Positions 1-6,394 of a DNA stretch of 12,399 nucleotides are shown here, one piece after another. This stretch comes from a virus (Duplodnaviria; Heunggongvirae; Uroviricota; Caudoviricetes). The number at the start of each line of letters is the position of its first letter. Position 1 is the stretch's first letter. The stretch is taken from positions 1 through 12,399 of the IMG/VR virus record IMGVR_UViG_2751185956_000002. The stretch is one strand, 5' to 3'. A program made the position numbers and the translations under genes. Under the pieces are notes generated by a model that saw nothing but the letters and a program-made list of their open reading frames with translations, made no database searches and was not told the DNA's origin.

Positions 1-879
1 AAACGTTTTATCCTGCGTCCAGGCGTTGTACCACGGTGTATCTGTAATTTTAAATAACTCTCCCTGGATAAAATCTTCAGAAGCATAAAAAAGAGGCTGG
101 CCCGGTATTCTCTCAAATAAAAAACGAGCATTTTTAAATCGACTGACATCCGGAAGAGTTGATACTTTAAAAGTAAGCCCTAATCCGTCAATTTTATAAC
201 CTGGAGATGAGGCTTCAAGGCACGCGCTTATTGCAGTGGAGTCGTCATTTATACCATCACCAACAGCTCCAAAATCTTTGGGGCTAATAGCATCACGCAT
301 TTTATCCTGGAACGTTCGGTACACAGCCCCAGAACCATACTGAATAAACCAACCAAAACCACCAACAACCCCGGCAATTGCAGCATCAACATAATTACGC
401 ATTGAGCGATTATTTACAGCGTCCTGCTCAAATGATGGATCTGCAAGGTTAGAAATTTTGTTTTGCTTTGCATCGTAATATTTTGCAAGCAGAGAGGGCT
501 TCATCAATGCACGTCTGAACCACCCAAAACATTGCTGGATCAGCATCGTCAGGTAGTCAAAGGCATCTTCATGCACTTCGGGGAAAAATTTTCCCTGATT
601 GCGAAGGTCTGTCTCCTGCACTACATCAAGCACACGATCTATCGTAATTCGCCATCCAGTAGCAAGCGGAGACGGAAGAACCACAGAACCGCCACTATAA
701 GTGCCCGCCCCAGTTACCGTATAACCGGTATCCAGGACCAATTCTGTTACGTTCCCGTTCAGGTCAGACACCTGAACAACCAGGTCTGATTTTCTGAAAA
801 TTCGAAAAGTATACGGAAACGATGTCGTAACGCCGTTACCGGTGTATTCGTTGTGGTCAACTTCGGTTGAGACCGTCAT
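1..879 (-). CDS. Tailspike / tail fibre protein, N-terminal 293 codons only (gene continues beyond window start)
   Basis: ATG at 879-877 preceded by GGAG with a 7-nt spacer; the frame is open to position 1. Translation begins MTVSTEVDHNEYTGNGVTTSFPYTFRIFRKSDLVVQV. Around residue 200 the stretch SPKDFGAVGDGINDDSTAIS resembles the start of the right-handed beta-helix (pectate-lyase-like) receptor-binding domain of tailspikes. The first ~150 aa look like a particle-attachment domain (recollection, not searched). Confidence 0.75.
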   Translation of the reverse strand, partial: MTVSTEVDHNEYTGNGVTTSFPYTFRIFRKSDLVVQVSDLNGNVTELVLDTGYTVTGAGTYSGGSVVLPSPLATGWRITIDRVLDVVQETDLRNQGKFFPEVHEDAFDYLTMLIQQCFGWFRRALMKPSLLAKYYDAKQNKISNLADPSFEQDAVNNRSMRNYVDAAIAGVVGGFGWFIQYGSGAVYRTFQDKMRDAISPKDFGAVGDGINDDSTAISACLEASSPGYKIDGLGLTFKVSTLPDVSRFKNARFLFERIPGQPLFYASEDFIQGELFKITDTPWYNAWTQDKTF

Positions 880-982
880 GTTAAATCTCCAGATAGTCGC
901 AGCACCCGTTGCGCCGCATATCTGGTTATTCTATTACCTGAAAAACCACATATGGATAAAAAGACTATAAATACCAATAGAT

Positions 983-999
983 ATTACCTTTCGGGTAAT
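983..999. promoter_or_regulatory. Operator-like palindrome A: ATTACC-TTTCG-GGTAAT
   Basis: Perfect 6-bp inverted arms with a 5-bp spacer. TTGCAA (1000-1005) lies immediately to the right, so on the minus strand the palindrome forms the 17-bp spacer of a possible leftward promoter pointing at the tailspike gene (-10 would be TATCTA, weak). Same core as sites B and C. Confidence 0.45.
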
Positions 1000-1074
1000 T
1001 TGCAAAACGTGCTGGATAGCAAACAAATTATTTGTTACTGTATAAACATACAGTTATTGCATGGAGAAGATAAG

Positions 1075-1332
1075 ATGCAGCAGTATCACTATCCACTGGA
1101 AGACGGATTTACCGAAAGGATTCACACGCCGGGAGGCGTCAGGTCACTGGTGGAGGGATCGCACTTGATGAAATTACTCCGGGATCTCGATAAGGATGGA
1201 TTTAATGTCGATGGCCCACTTGCCGAACTGACTGCACTGATTAACTACGTCACCAGCTCACAGATGTCTATGCAGGATCTGCAAACACATCTCGACTATT
1301 GTGCCGAACAATTACGAAAACAAACCAGATAA
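1075..1332 (+). CDS. Small protein (85 aa), stand-alone paralog of the antirepressor C-terminal domain
   Basis: ATG 1075 with GGAG 8 nt upstream. Preferred over the ORF-track start at 952, which has no RBS and would put palindrome A inside the coding sequence. Residues ~4-80 align with residues ~139-214 of the 218-aa antirepressor (shared H.P.GV..L.E.S.LM.LL..L..DG..V.G..AELT, then D.QTH..Y), roughly 40% identity by eye. Confidence 0.55.
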   Translation: MQQYHYPLEDGFTERIHTPGGVRSLVEGSHLMKLLRDLDKDGFNVDGPLAELTALINYVTSSQMSMQDLQTHLDYCAEQLRKQTR

Positions 1333-1335
1333 GGT

Positions 1336-1380
1336 TTGCAATTACCAAATGGAGTGCTTATATTTACCTTTGCGGTAAAT
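1336..1380 (+). promoter_or_regulatory. sigma70-like promoter (-35 TTGCAA 1336-1341, 17-bp spacer, -10 TATATT 1359-1364) with operator-like palindrome B (ATTTACC-TTTGC-GGTAAAT, 1362-1380) over the predicted start site
   Basis: Hexamers and spacing read directly. The palindrome begins inside the -10, the classic arrangement for repression. Palindrome B is itself nested inside a larger inverted repeat, GGAGTGC (1351-1357) / GCACTCC (1388-1394). Confidence 0.4.
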
Positions 1381-1491
1381 TTACATCGCACTCCTCTTGT
1401 GCCATAGTAATCGGGCACTGGCAAAATCCAGTGCCGGGATTGGTCTCCCGGATTACTAAGTGGCGCATACCACGCCAGACGTGGTTTTTTT
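1371..1491 (+). ncRNA. Candidate small structured RNA or attenuator-like leader (~120 nt) running from promoter B to an intrinsic terminator
   Basis: No credible ORF with an RBS in this stretch. It contains an 8-bp outer stem (TAGTAATC 1405-1412 / GATTACTA 1451-1458) enclosing a perfect 8-bp hairpin (GGCACTGG-CAAAAT-CCAGTGCC, 1414-1435) and a second hairpin (GGGA-TTGGTC-TCCC, 1436-1449, extendable to CCGGGA/TCCCGG), then the terminator at 1469-1491. Boundaries are inferred. Confidence 0.25.
1469..1491 (+). terminator. Rho-independent terminator-like hairpin
   Basis: Stem ACCACG / CGTGGT with loop CCAGA, immediately followed by a run of seven T (1485-1491). The stem is only 6 bp, so strength is modest. 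Confidence 0.45.
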
Positions 1492-1649
1492 ATGCGTATA
1501 GCACAGTCATGCCAGAATTATGGTGGGCTGAATGGGGGTCCGAAAGGACGCCGGTACCACTTAGGCCGGTAAGACCAACTCCGTTCAGTTCACCACCATC
1601 TGATTGGTCTCAGCGGTGGTGATGTAATTCGCTAAGTGGAGACGCCATC

Positions 1650-2306
1650 ATGAACGCTCAACTCATCCCCGTATTCAACGGCACTATATCTAACGAAACA
1701 GCCCTACTTTGTAATGCCCGCGATCTGCACGCTTTTTTAGGTGTTAAAAAGGTGTTTGCAGCATGGATTACAAATCGCATATCAGAATACGAATTCATTG
1801 AAAATCAAGACTATATTTTGCTTTCCAATTTGGGAAAGCAAACATCTGGTAGAGGCGGCCACAACCGCAAAGAGTACCACCTCACCCTTGATACAGCCAA
1901 AGAGCTGGCGATGGTCGAGCGTAACGAAAAAGGTCGTCAGGTACGACGCTACTTCATTGAATGCGAGAAACGTTTAAGACAACAAGAAACAAAAGTGGAG
2001 AAGGTCTTGTCAGGCTTCATGCCCGCCATTATGGAGGCGATCAAGCTGGAAGACAAAAAAGAATACAGTGCCCCGCTGAAGCCCGGCTACCGCAGCCTGA
2101 TTCATTCGCCGTCTGGTGTTCTCGGCCTGACGGAGAACTCACTGCTGATGAATCTGCTGAACCAGTTACAGGAAGACGGGCACGACGTATCGGGCGCGGC
2201 GGCGGAGCTGACCACCATGTTCTGCTACATCGTCGGTGTGAGCAAATGCCTGCGTGATATCCAGACGCACGCGGAGTACATCAACGACAAGGCAGGGTTC
2301 TTCTGA
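1650..2306 (+). CDS. Phage antirepressor, 218 aa (AntA-like N-terminal domain plus a C-terminal domain shared with the 85-aa ORF)
   Basis: ATG 1650 with GGAG 8 nt upstream; stop TGA 2304-2306. The N-terminal ~110 aa (LIPVFNG, then [76 protein letters not shown]) match my recollection of the AntA/AntB antirepressor family; not database-verified. Confidence 0.7.
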
Positions 2307-2314
2307 CGGGCGGT

Positions 2315-2341
2315 GGCACAGGGATGTGCCTTTAAATAATT
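2315..2341 (+). terminator. Weak terminator-like hairpin after the antirepressor gene
   Basis: Stem GGCACA / TGTGCC with loop GGGA (2315-2330), followed by the interrupted T/A-rich run TTTAAATAATT. Could equally be a processing or pause site. Confidence 0.25.
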
Positions 2342-2350
2342 CTGTACAGA

Positions 2351-2394
2351 TTGCAGACTGTGGGTGAATAGCGTACTATTACCTTAAAGGTAAA
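2351..2394 (+). promoter_or_regulatory. sigma70-like promoter (-35 TTGCAG 2351-2356, 17-bp spacer, -10 TACTAT 2374-2379) with operator-like palindrome C (ATTACC-TTAAA-GGTAAA, 2378-2394) over the start site
   Basis: Same architecture as promoter B: -35 TTGCAR, 17 bp, -10, with the palindrome starting inside the -10. The palindrome also abuts the Shine-Dalgarno sequence of the 55-aa ORF. Confidence 0.45.
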
Positions 2395-2405
2395 GGAGGC
2401 GCGAT

Positions 2406-2573
2406 ATGACAGCGTTGAAAAATCGTACTCAGCACAATGAACAAGCCAAGCAATGCTGGGATGTCATTGGAAAAGTTATGCTTGGCCGCGCAAGCAAAGA
2501 GCGCGACAAGGATATGGTTTACCAGACAGGAACATCTTTCAGCGACTTCAAGGCGGCATTTCGCTCCAAATAG
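2406..2573 (+). CDS. Small protein, 55 aa, function unknown (candidate regulator or partner of the downstream AT-rich gene)
   Basis: Not in the ORF track (too short). ATG 2406 is preceded by a near-consensus Shine-Dalgarno AAAGGAGG (2392-2399) with a 6-nt spacer; stop TAG 2571-2573. Translation MTALKNRTQHNEQAKQCWDVIGKVMLGRASKERDKDMVYQTGTSFSDFKAAFRSK. Confidence 0.45.
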   Translation: MTALKNRTQHNEQAKQCWDVIGKVMLGRASKERDKDMVYQTGTSFSDFKAAFRSK

Positions 2574-2593
2574 AAGCACATCAGGAGTTTTCC

Positions 2594-3034
2594 TTGAAGT
2601 TTAACATTAGAATATCTAATAGTTTTCTACATGGGGAAAGCAACACCCCTTTCGCTGTAGACGGACCTTTCCTTACTGATGATGAAATAAAAATCATACA
2701 AAGTTTTTTAGAGGATGTTGCCAATGGAAGGGCGCTTGTTGGAAAAAACAAGCCCTCGTGGGTTGATGATAACCATGATAAAATTCCCGGCTCAGACAAT
2801 TATGAGCAAGAGAATTATTGGCATTATCATTGTGGGCCAACATGGTATCCAAACACATTTAAGAATTATACCATTAACTTAAATTTCAACCCTGGCGGAA
2901 GGCATTCTAATGAATGCATTCATTATGCAAAAAATGATAATGAAATTGTCATTGTTGGATTTTCAAGAGAACACATACCTTTCCTTTCATCAGATGGAAA
3001 CAACAATCCGCTTTTTAATGATGAAGAAGAATAG
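2594..3034 (+). CDS. AT-rich moron protein, 146 aa if started at TTG 2594 (193 aa if ATG 2453 is used); His/Cys-rich C-terminal motif, function unknown
   Basis: The frame is open from 2453 to TAG 3032-3034, but the only in-frame ATG (2453) has no RBS and lies inside the 55-aa ORF in another frame. TTG 2594 is preceded by AGGAG (2583-2587) with a 6-nt spacer. Composition drops sharply to AT-rich from ~2590 to 3030. Contains WHYHCGPTWYPNTFKNYTINLNFNPGGRHSNECIHY. Confidence 0.5.
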   Translation: MKFNIRISNSFLHGESNTPFAVDGPFLTDDEIKIIQSFLEDVANGRALVGKNKPSWVDDNHDKIPGSDNYEQENYWHYHCGPTWYPNTFKNYTINLNFNPGGRHSNECIHYAKNDNEIVIVGFSREHIPFLSSDGNNNPLFNDEEE

Positions 3035-3056
3035 CCCGCGCTGCGGGCTTTTTTGT
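3033..3056 (+). terminator. Strong rho-independent terminator
   Basis: Perfect 7-bp GC-rich stem AGCCCGC / GCGGGCT with loop GCT, followed by TTTTTT, starting at the stop codon of the AT-rich gene. Confidence 0.75.
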
Positions 3057-3085
3057 GGACGAAACAAAAGTCAGTGCTACACTCA

Positions 3086-3113
3086 TTGACGCCACATTGA
3101 GGTGGCTTATAGA
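3086..3113 (+). promoter_or_regulatory. sigma70-like promoter candidate (-35 TTGACG 3086-3091, 16-bp spacer, -10 TATAGA 3108-3113)
   Basis: Hexamers read directly. It would give a very short leader before ATG 3127, so assignment to the downstream small ORF is tentative. Confidence 0.3.
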
Positions 3114-3126
3114 TGGAAATTTCACA

Positions 3127-3288
3127 ATGAAAAAAGCATTTGCTGCACTGTTCGTTTTGTTGTCTCTGGTAGCTTCAACTCAGGCCTTTGCCGGTCGTTG
3201 TCAGCACGACAGCGATACTGCCGCTGACGGCTCCCGCTGCGGTGGGCGTTCTGCGGATTCCCGCCCGGGTGGCGGTGGCATTCGTTAA
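3127..3288 (+). CDS. Small exported peptide precursor, 53 aa (signal peptide plus 31-aa Gly/Arg/Asp-rich mature peptide with two Cys)
   Basis: ATG 3127; stop TAA 3286-3288. The N-terminus MKKAFAALFVLLSLVASTQAFA is a textbook Sec signal peptide (basic n-region, hydrophobic core, AFA cleavage motif). Predicted mature peptide GRCQHDSDTAADGSRCGGRSADSRPGGGGIR. RBS is weak; the ORF-track GTG start at 3055 abuts the upstream terminator and is unlikely. Confidence 0.4.
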   Translation: MKKAFAALFVLLSLVASTQAFAGRCQHDSDTAADGSRCGGRSADSRPGGGGIR

Positions 3289-3311
3289 AAACAAGGCCGC
3301 GAAAGCGGCCT
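3283..3311 (-). terminator. Rho-independent terminator for the minus-strand operon (after the lipoprotein gene)
   Basis: Stem AGGCCGC / GCGGCCT with loop GAAA (3294-3311). On the minus strand it is followed by TGTTTTTAA (reverse complement of 3285-3293), 9 nt after the lipoprotein stop codon. Confidence 0.5.
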
Positions 3312-3319
3312 GTGACATG

Positions 3320-3700
3320 TCACGCAACGCAATTATTACCGCGCCATGTAACATTTTTAATAATCTTATCAGCACCAAACTCAACGTAAACAGAGCAACT
3401 GAAATGGAGTGTATAACCGCCATCAGTTGTTGCGTATGTGTTTGAATATATAGTATTACCAATTAGATTAGACGTAGTATTATACGTTGTGGTTTGTGGT
3501 ACGTTATAACTACCAGAGCTTGAGTAAACATACACTCTGTTTCCATCTGGAGATGTAAGCTCTCCCTGAGGATACCCCCACTGCTGAACCATTGCGTCTA
3601 TACTCTGCCCGCGCCACGTAAGCATATTTCTTTCAAACTGTGCAGCTGACTGGCATCCAACGAGAAGCATAAATCCAAAAATCAAAAATACTTTTCTCAT
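3320..3700 (-). CDS. Predicted outer-membrane lipoprotein, 126 aa (moron; candidate superinfection-exclusion or receptor-masking factor)
   Basis: ATG 3700-3698 with AGGGG 5 nt upstream; the ORF-track start (GTG 3736) is less likely. N-terminus MRKVFLIFGFMLLVGCQSAAQ gives a lipoprotein signal with lipobox LVGC and Gln at +2 (not Asp, so outer-membrane sorting is expected). AT-rich, unlike the neighbouring virion genes. Stop TGA 3322-3320. Confidence 0.7.
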   Translation of the reverse strand: MRKVFLIFGFMLLVGCQSAAQFERNMLTWRGQSIDAMVQQWGYPQGELTSPDGNRVYVYSSSGSYNVPQTTTYNTTSNLIGNTIYSNTYATTDGGYTLHFSCSVYVEFGADKIIKNVTWRGNNCVA

Positions 3701-3785
3701 AATTACCCCTATCATGGAAAAACAGCACCAATCCACAAATTAACTAGTTATTTTATTATTCTTCCGAACAATACAATTCCGAATA

Positions 3786-3919: not shown

Positions 3920-6394
3920 TTATTGCGGAGTGACATCCTGTGGTCGCCACCAGTATGTCTGGTTAAACTCTTTCTTCGAACGTTGCTCCATTTTACGCAA
4001 ATAGCCTGGTGAAAAATACTCCTGCATCTGGTTAAAGATCATGTGATCGAGAGCCGCCTTCAAGTACCAGAGATTCGCACCAGGCATCAAACCTTTCCCC
4101 AGCTTCACCAGATCACCACCAGTCTGCTCACTCTTCCCTTCCACAGCATTTAACGGTATGCCCTGAGCAATCTTCACTACGTCATCAACCAGACCAGCTA
4201 CCGGGCCAAGCATCGACGCCAGCGCGCCGCTTCCGTACCTAGTGTGATCTGACAATAAAAAGTCACCGTAAAGGCCAAGACCACCACCTTTCAGTAGAGC
4301 ACCAAGCCAGAATTTTGCGGCATCTTCTCCTGTCATCTCTCGAGGATTACGACCAGACGCAAGGTCGTTAAGTTGCTGCGACAAAGCGCCAAGAATGGTC
4401 GTACTGGCAATAAACGTCGCAATATATGCCGCACGCCCACCAGCAGACGGCATACCCATAGCGCGTGACCAGTGACGCATAACAACCGAGATAGGGAACG
4501 ATTTAAACAGGAAAACACTTCTCGTTAATTCACCTTTCCATGTTCCACGCTGAATACCAGAACCGGTTATCAGTTGCTCACGTGCTCCCGGTGTAATAAC
4601 AGCCATATCAACTTCTTCAGTTACGGCACCGAGCAGTTTACGCATTGCCTCAAATTTCACGCGTTCAGGCTCACCAAGATGTTTAACTGCTGAATCAGGG
4701 ATACGCATAATGCTTTCCGGTGTCAGCATCGTATTATTACCGTTCCCCCAGTCCTCCTGTTTCGCCAGCTTCCATACGCTCCAGTCTGTGTCAGTAATCC
4801 CTTTGCTTTTCAGGATACGAAAATCAGAGTCATCGAGGCTACGAAGGTCTGGTGTCCGTGACACTACTTCTCCCAGGCTTCCCATCATGGTTACGCCATA
4901 GGCGCGCTTGTGCGCATCTGACCATGCTGTAAGCCCACTGGCACGCATTACCGCCGTTGCCGCCCAACGAGACACTGACGGCCCCATATTATCCATCGCC
5001 CAGCGGTTAACGCTGCCAAGTAGAGATTCCATCGCCAGACCAGCGCGGCGCGCCCGCGCAAGTTCTGTACGGTTCGTTGGGTCCATAGCTTCAAGCTGGT
5101 TGCGGAATAACTGGTTCATTGGAAGGTTGGTAACCTTCGCAGACAGATACATGGTTCCAAGATCAGAGAACGATGACAGCAACGCGGATCCGAGTCTGCT
5201 GGCAACCAGCCAGTTGCGGATATTGTCAGACCATCGCGCGATGTGCGGATTCGCTACAGGCTGTGTCTTTCCGGAAATAAAGTTGTACAGATTCTCTGTG
5301 TTGTTCGCCAGCCGCTCGACTTTACCGGTTTTACTCGGGTTAGCTGTTGCCGTTTCTGCCTTCACCTGATCAAGAAGAGAGCGGAAAACATGATCGGGGT
5401 TTGGGCCATATGTTTCCACCAGTGCAATATCTTTACTGATACCTTCCAGGTGACAGACCATGATTTCCCATAGAGAGCGATCGCCATAAAGTTGCTGATA
5501 TTGCAGATAGGAATCTGCATCTTTGAAATGTATCTGTCGTGATGCATTACCACGGTTAGCACGTGCGCCGGAAATTCGCATTCCGGTATCAGTAAGCTTA
5601 TTCAGCCCACCAGTAGCGATCGTGTTATAAGCCTCTCCAAGAAATGAAGACAACTCGGCATCGTTCATCAGTTGTCCATCGGCTCGGATATAATATTTGC
5701 GATCCAGCTTACCTATAACATCGCTAACCCACTTATCCTTTGATACTGCCCCAACCTTTTCCATAGAATGATGTTGAGGGATCCCCCAGTTTTCGAGATA
5801 GCCAATGTCCCCACCAGCATCATTAAACCGGCGGCGCAGCAGCTCTGTAACTTCTCTCCACGCCTTAGCACCGTTTCTTGCTTTAGCATTGCCAGTATTT
5901 TGCCCCCGCATTTCATATACCAGGTCACGTACGCCCGCTTCATCTTCAAACAGACCAAAAAAGCGAGGATCAACTGCTTCGAATGCCTCCTGCAATTGAC
6001 TCAATGCATAATCACGGGTGGCTTTTGTTCTGGATTCAACAGAGAGGAAATTAGATTTACCGTCTGCATTAAAAGCTATAGTACGGTTAAGAGCGCCAAG
6101 TTTCCCATCAGCCCCTTGATAGCTATTGATAAATTTATCCAATCTCTGACGCGCGGCTATAGTGAGAGCCACACGACGTTTATTTAATGCCGCTTCTCGC
6201 TGTAATTCTTCAGATGCCAATTGTGCTGCTCGATATAGCCGCTCTGATTCGGAAAGTTGTCGCCACGACATAGTGTCATCACGAGCAATGGAGCGCATAT
6301 TTCGATAAATGCGGTCTTCAATGTTCTGTATTTCTCGCGCCGTTAACATGCGCTGCGCCGCCTGCTGAACCGCTTGTATACATTCCTGTCTCAT
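3920..6394 (-). CDS. Large virion internal-core / DNA-ejection-type protein, 824 aa
   Basis: Uninterrupted ORF; ATG 6394-6392 with a GAGG-containing RBS; stop TAA 3922-3920. Third of three consecutive large proteins (837, 600, 824 aa) between small virion genes and the tailspike, the arrangement typical of podophage ejection/core proteins. Function is inferred from size, order and context only. Confidence 0.75.
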   Translation of the reverse strand: MRQECIQAVQQAAQRMLTAREIQNIEDRIYRNMRSIARDDTMSWRQLSESERLYRAAQLASEELQREAALNKRRVALTIAARQRLDKFINSYQGADGKLGALNRTIAFNADGKSNFLSVESRTKATRDYALSQLQEAFEAVDPRFFGLFEDEAGVRDLVYEMRGQNTGNAKARNGAKAWREVTELLRRRFNDAGGDIGYLENWGIPQHHSMEKVGAVSKDKWVSDVIGKLDRKYYIRADGQLMNDAELSSFLGEAYNTIATGGLNKLTDTGMRISGARANRGNASRQIHFKDADSYLQYQQLYGDRSLWEIMVCHLEGISKDIALVETYGPNPDHVFRSLLDQVKAETATANPSKTGKVERLANNTENLYNFISGKTQPVANPHIARWSDNIRNWLVASRLGSALLSSFSDLGTMYLSAKVTNLPMNQLFRNQLEAMDPTNRTELARARRAGLAMESLLGSVNRWAMDNMGPSVSRWAATAVMRASGLTAWSDAHKRAYGVTMMGSLGEVVSRTPDLRSLDDSDFRILKSKGITDTDWSVWKLAKQEDWGNGNNTMLTPESIMRIPDSAVKHLGEPERVKFEAMRKLLGAVTEEVDMAVITPGAREQLITGSGIQRGTWKGELTRSVFLFKSFPISVVMRHWSRAMGMPSAGGRAAYIATFIASTTILGALSQQLNDLASGRNPREMTGEDAAKFWLGALLKGGGLGLYGDFLLSDHTRYGSGALASMLGPVAGLVDDVVKIAQGIPLNAVEGKSEQTGGDLVKLGKGLMPGANLWYLKAALDHMIFNQMQEYFSPGYLRKMEQRSKKEFNQTYWWRPQDVTPQ

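Follow-up and report, generated by a model that had tools for sequence, protein, structure and literature searches.

The window analysed here is a 12,399-nt stretch of a tailed-phage genome (Caudoviricetes; IMG/VR record IMGVR_UViG_2751185956_000002), and this paper concerns a short locus within it that carries two genes with a common protein domain. The first is an 85 amino acid open reading frame (ORF) at 1075-1332, named here small ant, and the second is a 218 amino acid antirepressor gene at 1650-2306, named here large ant. Both genes, and the promoter and RNA elements described between them, are on the plus strand. Over region 800-3100 the window shares 99.2% identity with Escherichia phage phiv142-3 (genus Uetakevirus, epsilon15/phiV10 group), and many E. 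coli prophages match this region at 97-98% identity; by these matches the window is identified as a Uetakevirus (epsilon15/phiV10-like) prophage. The ant locus is flanked on one side by a minus-strand tail-fibre gene, which ends near 880, and on the other by large minus-strand ejection/structural genes that begin at 3920. Between the two ant genes lies a C4 antisense RNA system, which is absent from an earlier, sequence-only reading of this DNA.

That reading had noticed that the 85 amino acid product resembles the C-terminus of the antirepressor over about 75 residues, and this similarity is confirmed. BLASTP aligns the two proteins without gaps at 31/74 identities (42%) with an expectation value (E) of 3e-16, over residues 2-75 in the small protein and 137-210 in the large. 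In large ant this segment corresponds to nt 2058-2279, close to the coordinates 2064-2291 given earlier. In a PDB sequence search both proteins match chain 5D50_E (E 4e-47 for the small protein and 4.6e-14 for residues 137-213 of the large one), and both also match the PHROG family phrog_450. The Pfam AntA domain (PF08346) is found at residues 22-92 of the large protein, with 91.8 bits against a cut-off of 27, and the small protein has no AntA, as had also been said. No Pfam model covers the shared domain; the sole match, to DUF724, scores 17.6 bits where the cut-off is 38.4 and is noise.

Stand-alone and fused Ant domains form separate clades, and this split is old, because Klebsiella phages hold both versions and both have diverged there. 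About 20 residues, among them Y, P, IH, GV, DG, AE, Y, D, and TH, do not vary in either of the alignments that join the two clades, and they are distributed over the entire Ant domain. The C-terminal domain of the large protein shows significant homology over the whole domain and keeps these invariant residues, as is expected from a member of the family. An AlphaFold2 model of the 218 amino acid protein, made from a 17-sequence alignment, has a mean predicted local distance difference test (pLDDT) score of 39.5 and a predicted template modelling (pTM) score of 0.29; it is unusable and supports no structural claim.

The identity of the small protein is the clearest result at this locus. Its PDB search gives one match, chain E of 5D50, an 86 amino acid 'Anti-repressor protein', and the alignment runs nearly end to end (residues 2-84 on 3-85 of 86). 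By tblastn, the gene of Salmonella phage SPC32H that is annotated 'ant: anti-repressor protein' is 88% identical to the small ORF product. The match to phrog_450 has an E of 9e-48, and the protein is homologous to epsilon15p19 and PhiV10p24. Judged by this homology the small ORF is a member of the characterised SPC32H-type antirepressor family, with the whole protein forming the Ant domain, and is not a decoy. Almost every E. coli and Klebsiella record that was examined, that of phage ZX5 among them, labels it 'hypothetical protein'. The start at 1075, which follows a Shine-Dalgarno sequence GGAG at 1062-1065 (plus strand), fits the 86 amino acid length of the crystallised ortholog. Many database gene calls start the gene at ATG 952 instead and give 126-127 amino acids (for example cluster P0003, with 833 members). 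We rejected this 126 amino acid reading as a probable gene-calling artefact, for it would extend across the upstream palindrome and the LexA box and be longer than the crystallised protein.

In two papers that cite the SPC32H work, the Ant tetramer is described as binding two Rep dimers and breaking up the DNA-binding Rep tetramer (PMC9638917), and the contact is said to be made through the C-terminal tetramerisation domain of Rep (PMC9986798). This agrees with the earlier suggestion that the shared segment is an interaction or oligomerisation module, since the entire 86 amino acid SPC32H protein is a Rep-binding tetramer. A review of Salmonella prophages describes SOS/LexA-triggered synthesis of such an antirepressor and cites Kim and Ryu 2013 for it (PMC7380047). 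By analogy with the SPC32H ortholog, for which these activities are known, the small Ant of the window may be expected to form tetramers and to release Rep from DNA. In SPC32H small ant is the sole gene between the tailspike and the membrane/ejection genes, so a small Ant acts there without a large partner, and epsilon15 likewise has no large gene at this locus. The rep gene is outside the window and the cognate Rep was taken from phiv142-3, which is 99% identical over a 2.3-kb query and encodes a 194 amino acid Rep that matches the SPC32H Rep (5D50_A) with an E of 4e-42; the Rep of this phage type is only about 42% identical to the Rep of SPC32H.

The large Ant protein is composed of the AntA N-terminal domain (residues 22-92, nt 1713-1925), a helical linker and the Ant-like C-terminal domain (residues 137-213, nt 2058-2288), and it matches PHROG phrog_377, 'anti-repressor Ant'. 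Across E. coli Uetakevirus-type phages and prophages the C-domain, from YSAPLKPGY to AGFF, is 96-100% identical. The N-domains that are found on this nearly identical C-domain are AntA, Bro-N (in two variants), ORF6N, and P22_AR_N. A reciprocal exchange was found in a Lambdavirus, where an AntA N-domain about 95% identical over the first ~110 residues (83% over the full 134 amino acid alignment) is attached to Pfam P22_AR_C. From the swapping of N-domains on a constant C-domain, together with this reciprocal case, we can suggest that the C-domain tracks the repressor type of the phage and that the N-domain is generic; that is, the C-terminal domain is proposed to be the repressor-specific module and the N-terminal AntA a swappable one. 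A word-indexed search with the small protein found close stand-alone relatives only, and an exhaustive profile search over 1.84 billion representatives was needed in order to find the fused forms. This search returned only 62 members of the Ant-domain family. They are either stand-alone proteins of 80-96 amino acids or fusions in which the domain is always C-terminal, behind AntA, Bro-N, ORF6N or Rha; the fusions with Rha and other N-domains carry more divergent members of the C-domain family.

Other arrangements of the domain were also seen. Some relatives hold three Ant-domain genes at the locus (TL-2011b, L004 6403-6948 and 7277-8221; L006:3610-3850), of which the third is on the opposite strand and joins a P22_AR_N N-domain to a C-domain that is 96% identical; the TL-2011b cassette also includes a YafO-family toxin gene. 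In Klebsiella phage ST512-KPC3phi13.3 the large Ant has 151 amino acids and lacks most of Bro-N, and an ORF with a DUF1902 domain (HicB-like antitoxin fold) stands between small ant and the isrK/C4/large-ant module (L014:3846-4103). A short form of large Ant made from an internal start, as in P1 Ant2, was considered and rejected; it would have to use the in-frame ATGs at 2019 and 2031, just before the C-domain, and neither has a Shine-Dalgarno sequence at a usable distance. The 95 amino acid database proteins that start MPAI... (P0124, P0125) are more likely fragments.

The two genes differ in how they are distributed. Among 50,697 phage records, 35 contain small Ant and 36 contain Rep (at least 80% coverage), and the two sets divide among organism genera in the same way. 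One or two further Ant-domain copies are present in 17 of the 35 records with small Ant, and a fused copy without small Ant was seen in none of the 50,697. In 5,426 complete E. coli genomes small ant is present in 529 and the DNA of the C-domain (at least 95% identity) in 470, about 9-10% each, and in 281 genomes small ant is directly contiguous with isrK/C4. Next to the integrase, such prophages often have a further gene that combines AntA with the C-domain. Of the two genes of the locus, the small one is its ancestral core, and the large one is accessory and modular. This reverses the polarity that had been assumed earlier, because the small Ant ortholog is active alone and comes with a conserved LexA box and palindrome.

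The regulatory elements point to different signals for the two genes. The LexA (SOS) box CTGTATAAACATACAG at 1038-1053 (plus strand), 22 nt 5' of the small ant ATG, matches the consensus and is the only perfect CTGT-N8-ACAG in the window. All related loci examined have the box at the corresponding place, SPC32H and phiV10 among them; in the Klebsiella phages one base is changed. A palindrome of the form TTACC-N5-GGTAA, TTACCTTTCGGGTAA (984-998), is located 5' of the small ant promoter, and its position is conserved in SPC32H, phiV10, and the Klebsiella phages. A second palindrome, TTACCTTTGCGGTAA (1364-1378), abuts the -10 of the isrK/C4/ant promoter and has an equivalent in related loci, and a third, TTACCTTAAAGGTAA (2379-2393), is located 13 nt 5' of a 55 amino acid ORF (2406-2573, phrog_8607). 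Three copies in the window were equalled in 0 of 200 shuffles. In phiv142-3 there are 15 such sites (at most one mismatch), mostly intergenic, of which two lie between rep and the divergent gene next to it and two more shortly 3' of rep, and related prophages have the same pattern; no TTACC-N5-GGTAA was found in the N15 and lambdavirus loci. These palindromes are probably Rep operators, as far as their placement can tell. The phiv142-3 sites precede many operons genome-wide, as in the terminase region and the replication genes, on either side of rep and close to the integrase, and this scattered layout is nearer to that of the C1 operators of P1 than to the OL/OR pair of the lambda type. The perfect LexA box and the three palindromes bear out the earlier statement that both genes are located behind operator-bearing promoter regions.

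Downstream of small ant a sigma-70-like promoter, TTGCAA-17-TATATT (1335-1364; consensus match only), is predicted to drive the isrK/C4/ant operon. It is followed by an isrK-like leader RNA at 1415-1491 (Rfam RF01394, 67.7 bits, gathering threshold (GA) 50), which overlaps a match to c4-a1b1 (RF03163) of 39.9 bits, under the GA of 46.7. The leader contains the C4 target sites a1, TTGGTCT (1440-1446), and b1, CTAAGTGG (1456-1463), and is closed by a predicted intrinsic terminator at 1469-1492 (stem 1469-1485 and a T-run). The C4 antisense RNA is at 1516-1600 (RF01695, 61.2 bits, GA 45, E 4e-10), with b', CCACTTAG, in its hairpin loop at 1557-1564, as placed by fold and complementarity, and a', AGACCAA, at 1572-1578. 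A second target set follows, in which a2, TTGGTCT (1604-1610), has an exact 7-nt complementarity to C4 1572-1578 and b2, CTAAGTGG (1632-1639), an exact 8-nt complementarity to C4 1557-1564. The b2 site overlaps the large ant Shine-Dalgarno sequence GGAG (1638-1641), and the ATG is at 1650. The locus thus has the features of P1 immI: a C4 RNA 5' of ant on the same strand, duplicate a1/b1 and a2/b2 targets, and the downstream set placed on the ribosome-binding site. The pair of isrK and C4 is conserved ahead of large ant in 8 other loci, among which are those of phiV10, TL-2011b and ZX5 as well as two E. coli prophages and two Klebsiella phages. Before other AntA-type genes C4 is replaced by the Rfam small RNA sRNA-Xcc1 (RF02221), as in an E. 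coli prophage at guaA (L009:7780-8000; 62.9 bits) and in Lambdavirus PDP110P1 (L017:1374-1463; 65.4 bits). The guaA prophage has two copies of ACTTCAAAG, one upstream and one at the ribosome-binding site, and its small RNA holds the complement CTTTGAAG, so that this arrangement looks like a C4-analogous antisense lock of a different specificity.

The mechanism that we propose, and to which we give a probability of about 0.7, is that the locus encodes two antirepressors which carry homologous versions of one Rep-binding tetramer domain and which are each wired to a different signal. LexA bound to the box at 1038-1053 would hold small ant off, and DNA damage would remove LexA, so that Ant is made as the core SOS trigger. 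As in SPC32H, the Ant tetramer would take two Rep dimers through the C-terminal tetramerisation domain of Rep, the DNA-binding Rep tetramer would be broken up, and prophage induction would follow. Large ant would be a horizontally exchangeable accessory cassette, inserted just 3' of small ant, with a promoter that is overlapped by a putative Rep operator. The co-transcribed C4 RNA may pair with a2/b2 over the ribosome-binding site and block translation, as it does in P1/P7 immI. Because of the putative Rep operator and the C4 block, large Ant should be silent in the lysogen. Infection may bring a pulse of large Ant, and the protein may also be made where C4 is lacking, mismatched (for example in a heteroimmune superinfection) or titrated, a timing that we infer from these elements, and its C-domain would then inactivate the same Rep.

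A functional hint for a large Ant comes from phage ZX5. ORF4 of this phage encodes a Bro-N protein that ends in ~82 residues, from YSAPLKPGY on, identical to the C-domain of the window, and the phage also encodes an identical small Ant. According to its authors ZX5 has the same Rep as phiv142-3, and overexpression of ORF4 promotes lytic growth and lowers the prophage titre from 10^9 to 10^6 (PMC9782041). ZX5 is a near-identical phage, and this one paper on such a phage concentrates on its large gene; the small gene, LexA and SPC32H do not come up in it (PMC9782041).

Several points weigh against the proposal of two antirepressors on one Rep. The ORF4 test in ZX5 was made with an overexpressed GST (glutathione S-transferase) fusion in which the two domains were not separated (PMC9782041). 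Rep binding by the large C-domain is something we infer from homology, from the pattern of domain swaps and from co-distribution with Rep, and the identity of this domain to small Ant is 37-42%. The assignment of the palindromes to Rep draws on a single kind of evidence, the distribution of the sites. There is no icd-type leader ORF between C4 and ant, and ATG 1650 comes directly after b2 and the Shine-Dalgarno sequence. In phiV10, the reference phage of the group, the Bro-N antirepressor gene (p23/p22, L002:3841-4520) is frameshifted in the Ant-like C-domain; the protein ends ...LLMNRTTGMMYQARRRS and a 90-bp ORF follows, so that phiV10 is probably without a functional large Ant and the large gene appears dispensable in at least one viable phage.

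One alternative is that the C-domain of the large protein is only a tetramerisation scaffold, that the N-domain is the active part, as an antirepressor for another target or as a DNA-binding module, and that the two proteins do not converge on Rep. Bro-N and KilA-N-like N-domains are, as general background, predicted to bind DNA, the C-domain has only about 40% identity to small Ant, and an N-domain is always present, which implies that it contributes something. However, if the specificity were located in the N-domain its conservation would be predicted, and instead five unrelated Pfam N-domains swap on a C-domain that is almost constant, while the same AntA is joined to a different C-domain in a phage whose repressor is of another type. 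The fused domain is also confined to phage records with small Ant, the same set that has the SPC32H-type Rep, and the residues that are invariant in both clades span the whole domain. We therefore consider the scaffold explanation unlikely.

Another hypothesis is that the large ant cassette is a passenger without a role in the switch of its own phage, either as a decaying moron or as an inducer of heteroimmune resident prophages. The frameshift in phiV10, the absence of the large gene from SPC32H and epsilon15, and the unrelated small ORFs with which the cassette travels would all fit such a passenger. Trans-acting antirepressors that induce other prophages are also known (Lemire 2011, cited in PMC7380047). 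Against this, the C-domain is intact in the 470 E. coli genomes counted above, the cassette is kept under an intact C4 lock and a putative Rep operator of the resident phage, and ORF4 alters the lysogeny of ZX5 itself (PMC9782041), which makes this hypothesis quite unlikely.

The idea put forward in the sequence-only reading, that the free 85 amino acid domain is a decoy or dominant-negative form which poisons large Ant oligomers or competes for the repressor and so damps induction, is highly improbable, even though mixed oligomers are physically conceivable for a domain that forms tetramers in SPC32H and the two genes lie side by side in at least 281 E. coli genomes, because the 88%-identical ortholog is an active antirepressor crystallised with its Rep (5D50) and works alone in phages without the large gene where a decoy would be an inactive truncated copy dependent on the full-length protein, because a decoy under LexA control would make DNA damage oppose induction, and because the small gene is the universal partner (35/35 domain-carrying phage records) and the large one optional (17/35). 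The earlier interpretation is thus partly supported: its observations on the shared domain stand, and the role that it gave to the small protein does not.

Within the proposal of two antirepressors it can also be asked whether the two are functionally coupled, through titration of C4 or through mixed tetramers, and this we regard as doubtful. From the stop of small ant (1332) up to the isrK terminator (1469-1492) there is no other terminator, and therefore SOS transcripts from the LexA-controlled promoter would carry a1/b1. One possible option is that these a1/b1 copies titrate C4 in the manner of IsrK and unlock large Ant, in what would be a feed-forward cascade. A second option is that mixed tetramers give Rep-bound complexes an AntA or Bro-N module, which could for example tether or relocate Rep. 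If coupling of either kind were true, the gene pair would be a two-input integrator, and the AntA/Bro-N/ORF6N N-domains would have a first assignable role.

The genes that follow large ant were also looked at. The 55 amino acid ORF behind the third palindrome begins a run of accessory small ORFs (2406-3736 in the window), all of them without an assigned function. The ORF at 2453-3034 matches phrog_5954 only over residues 49-189, so that its true start is probably internal, and a bidirectional terminator is located 3' of it at 3033-3049. A short ORF within 3055-3288 has a signal-peptide-like start, and a minus-strand ORF at 3320-3736 is lipoprotein-like (...LLVGCQS).

The pairing of the two genes matters in several ways. 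Few phage regulators are annotated as often as the large modular antirepressors (AntA, Bro-N, ORF6N, Rha, and P22_AR_N types). A C-module that is homologous to the antirepressor of a solved Ant-Rep complex gives a concrete structural hypothesis for how such proteins recognise their targets, and the free and fused forms in one genome offer a natural comparison with and without the N-domain, from which the contribution of the N-domain could be learned. The arrangement is common, and it bears on how these prophages are induced by SOS as against infection or superinfection. The annotation can also be corrected, in that a 'hypothetical protein' is a characterised antirepressor, including in the phage whose 'anti-repressor' was studied experimentally.

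Every component of the locus is already known, but for the pairing of two antirepressors with a shared domain we found no description in literature searches, in agreement with the earlier remark that the arrangement was not a described regulatory motif. The nearest system is Ant-Rep of SPC32H (Kim & Ryu 2013, J Virol; Kim et al. 2016, PNAS; PDB 5D50/5D4Z), which shares with the window the length of small ant, its position between tailspike and ejection genes, the upstream LexA box and palindrome, and a homologous Rep. Unlike the window, it has no second gene with the domain, no C4 RNA and no downstream cassette. In the immI operon of P1/P7 (c4-icd-ant1/ant2), where C4 RNA blocks antirepressor synthesis (PMC8201110), the order a1/b1, C4, a2/b2 is the same, the target is on the ribosome-binding site and the promoter is controlled by the repressor. 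P1 immI differs in having the icd leader ORF, and P1 Ant is unrelated in sequence to the large Ant of the window. P1 reportedly produces Ant1 at full length together with Ant2, a form shortened at the N-terminus, and the two have a C-terminal part in common. The short form of P1 arises from an internal in-frame start, whereas in the window it is a separate gene, ~40% identical, with a LexA-controlled promoter.

In phage N15 an antirepressor of the LexA regulon, AntC, and an immA operon (icd-antA-antB) locked by a small processed RNA are said to act on one prophage repressor. This regulatory logic, with one SOS antirepressor and one that is RNA-locked, is the same as that proposed for the window. 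To our knowledge the N15 antirepressors do not share a domain, and homology was rejected by BLASTP of both window proteins against gp30, gp31, gp32, gp46, gp47, gp50, and gp51 (best E 0.13). In the isrK-orf45-anrP region of Gifsy-1 the short terminated IsrK RNA activates in trans the translation of the downstream antirepressor message (PMC4825925). The leader of the window belongs to the same Rfam isrK family, and the window differs in having no orf45-like upstream ORF. Finally, phage regulators of the Bro-N/KilA-N type have reportedly been described as interchangeable N-modules with varied C-modules. Compared with such shuffling, the C-module of the window can be linked to a repressor-antirepressor complex of solved structure and to a single repressor family, and it also occurs free in the same genome.

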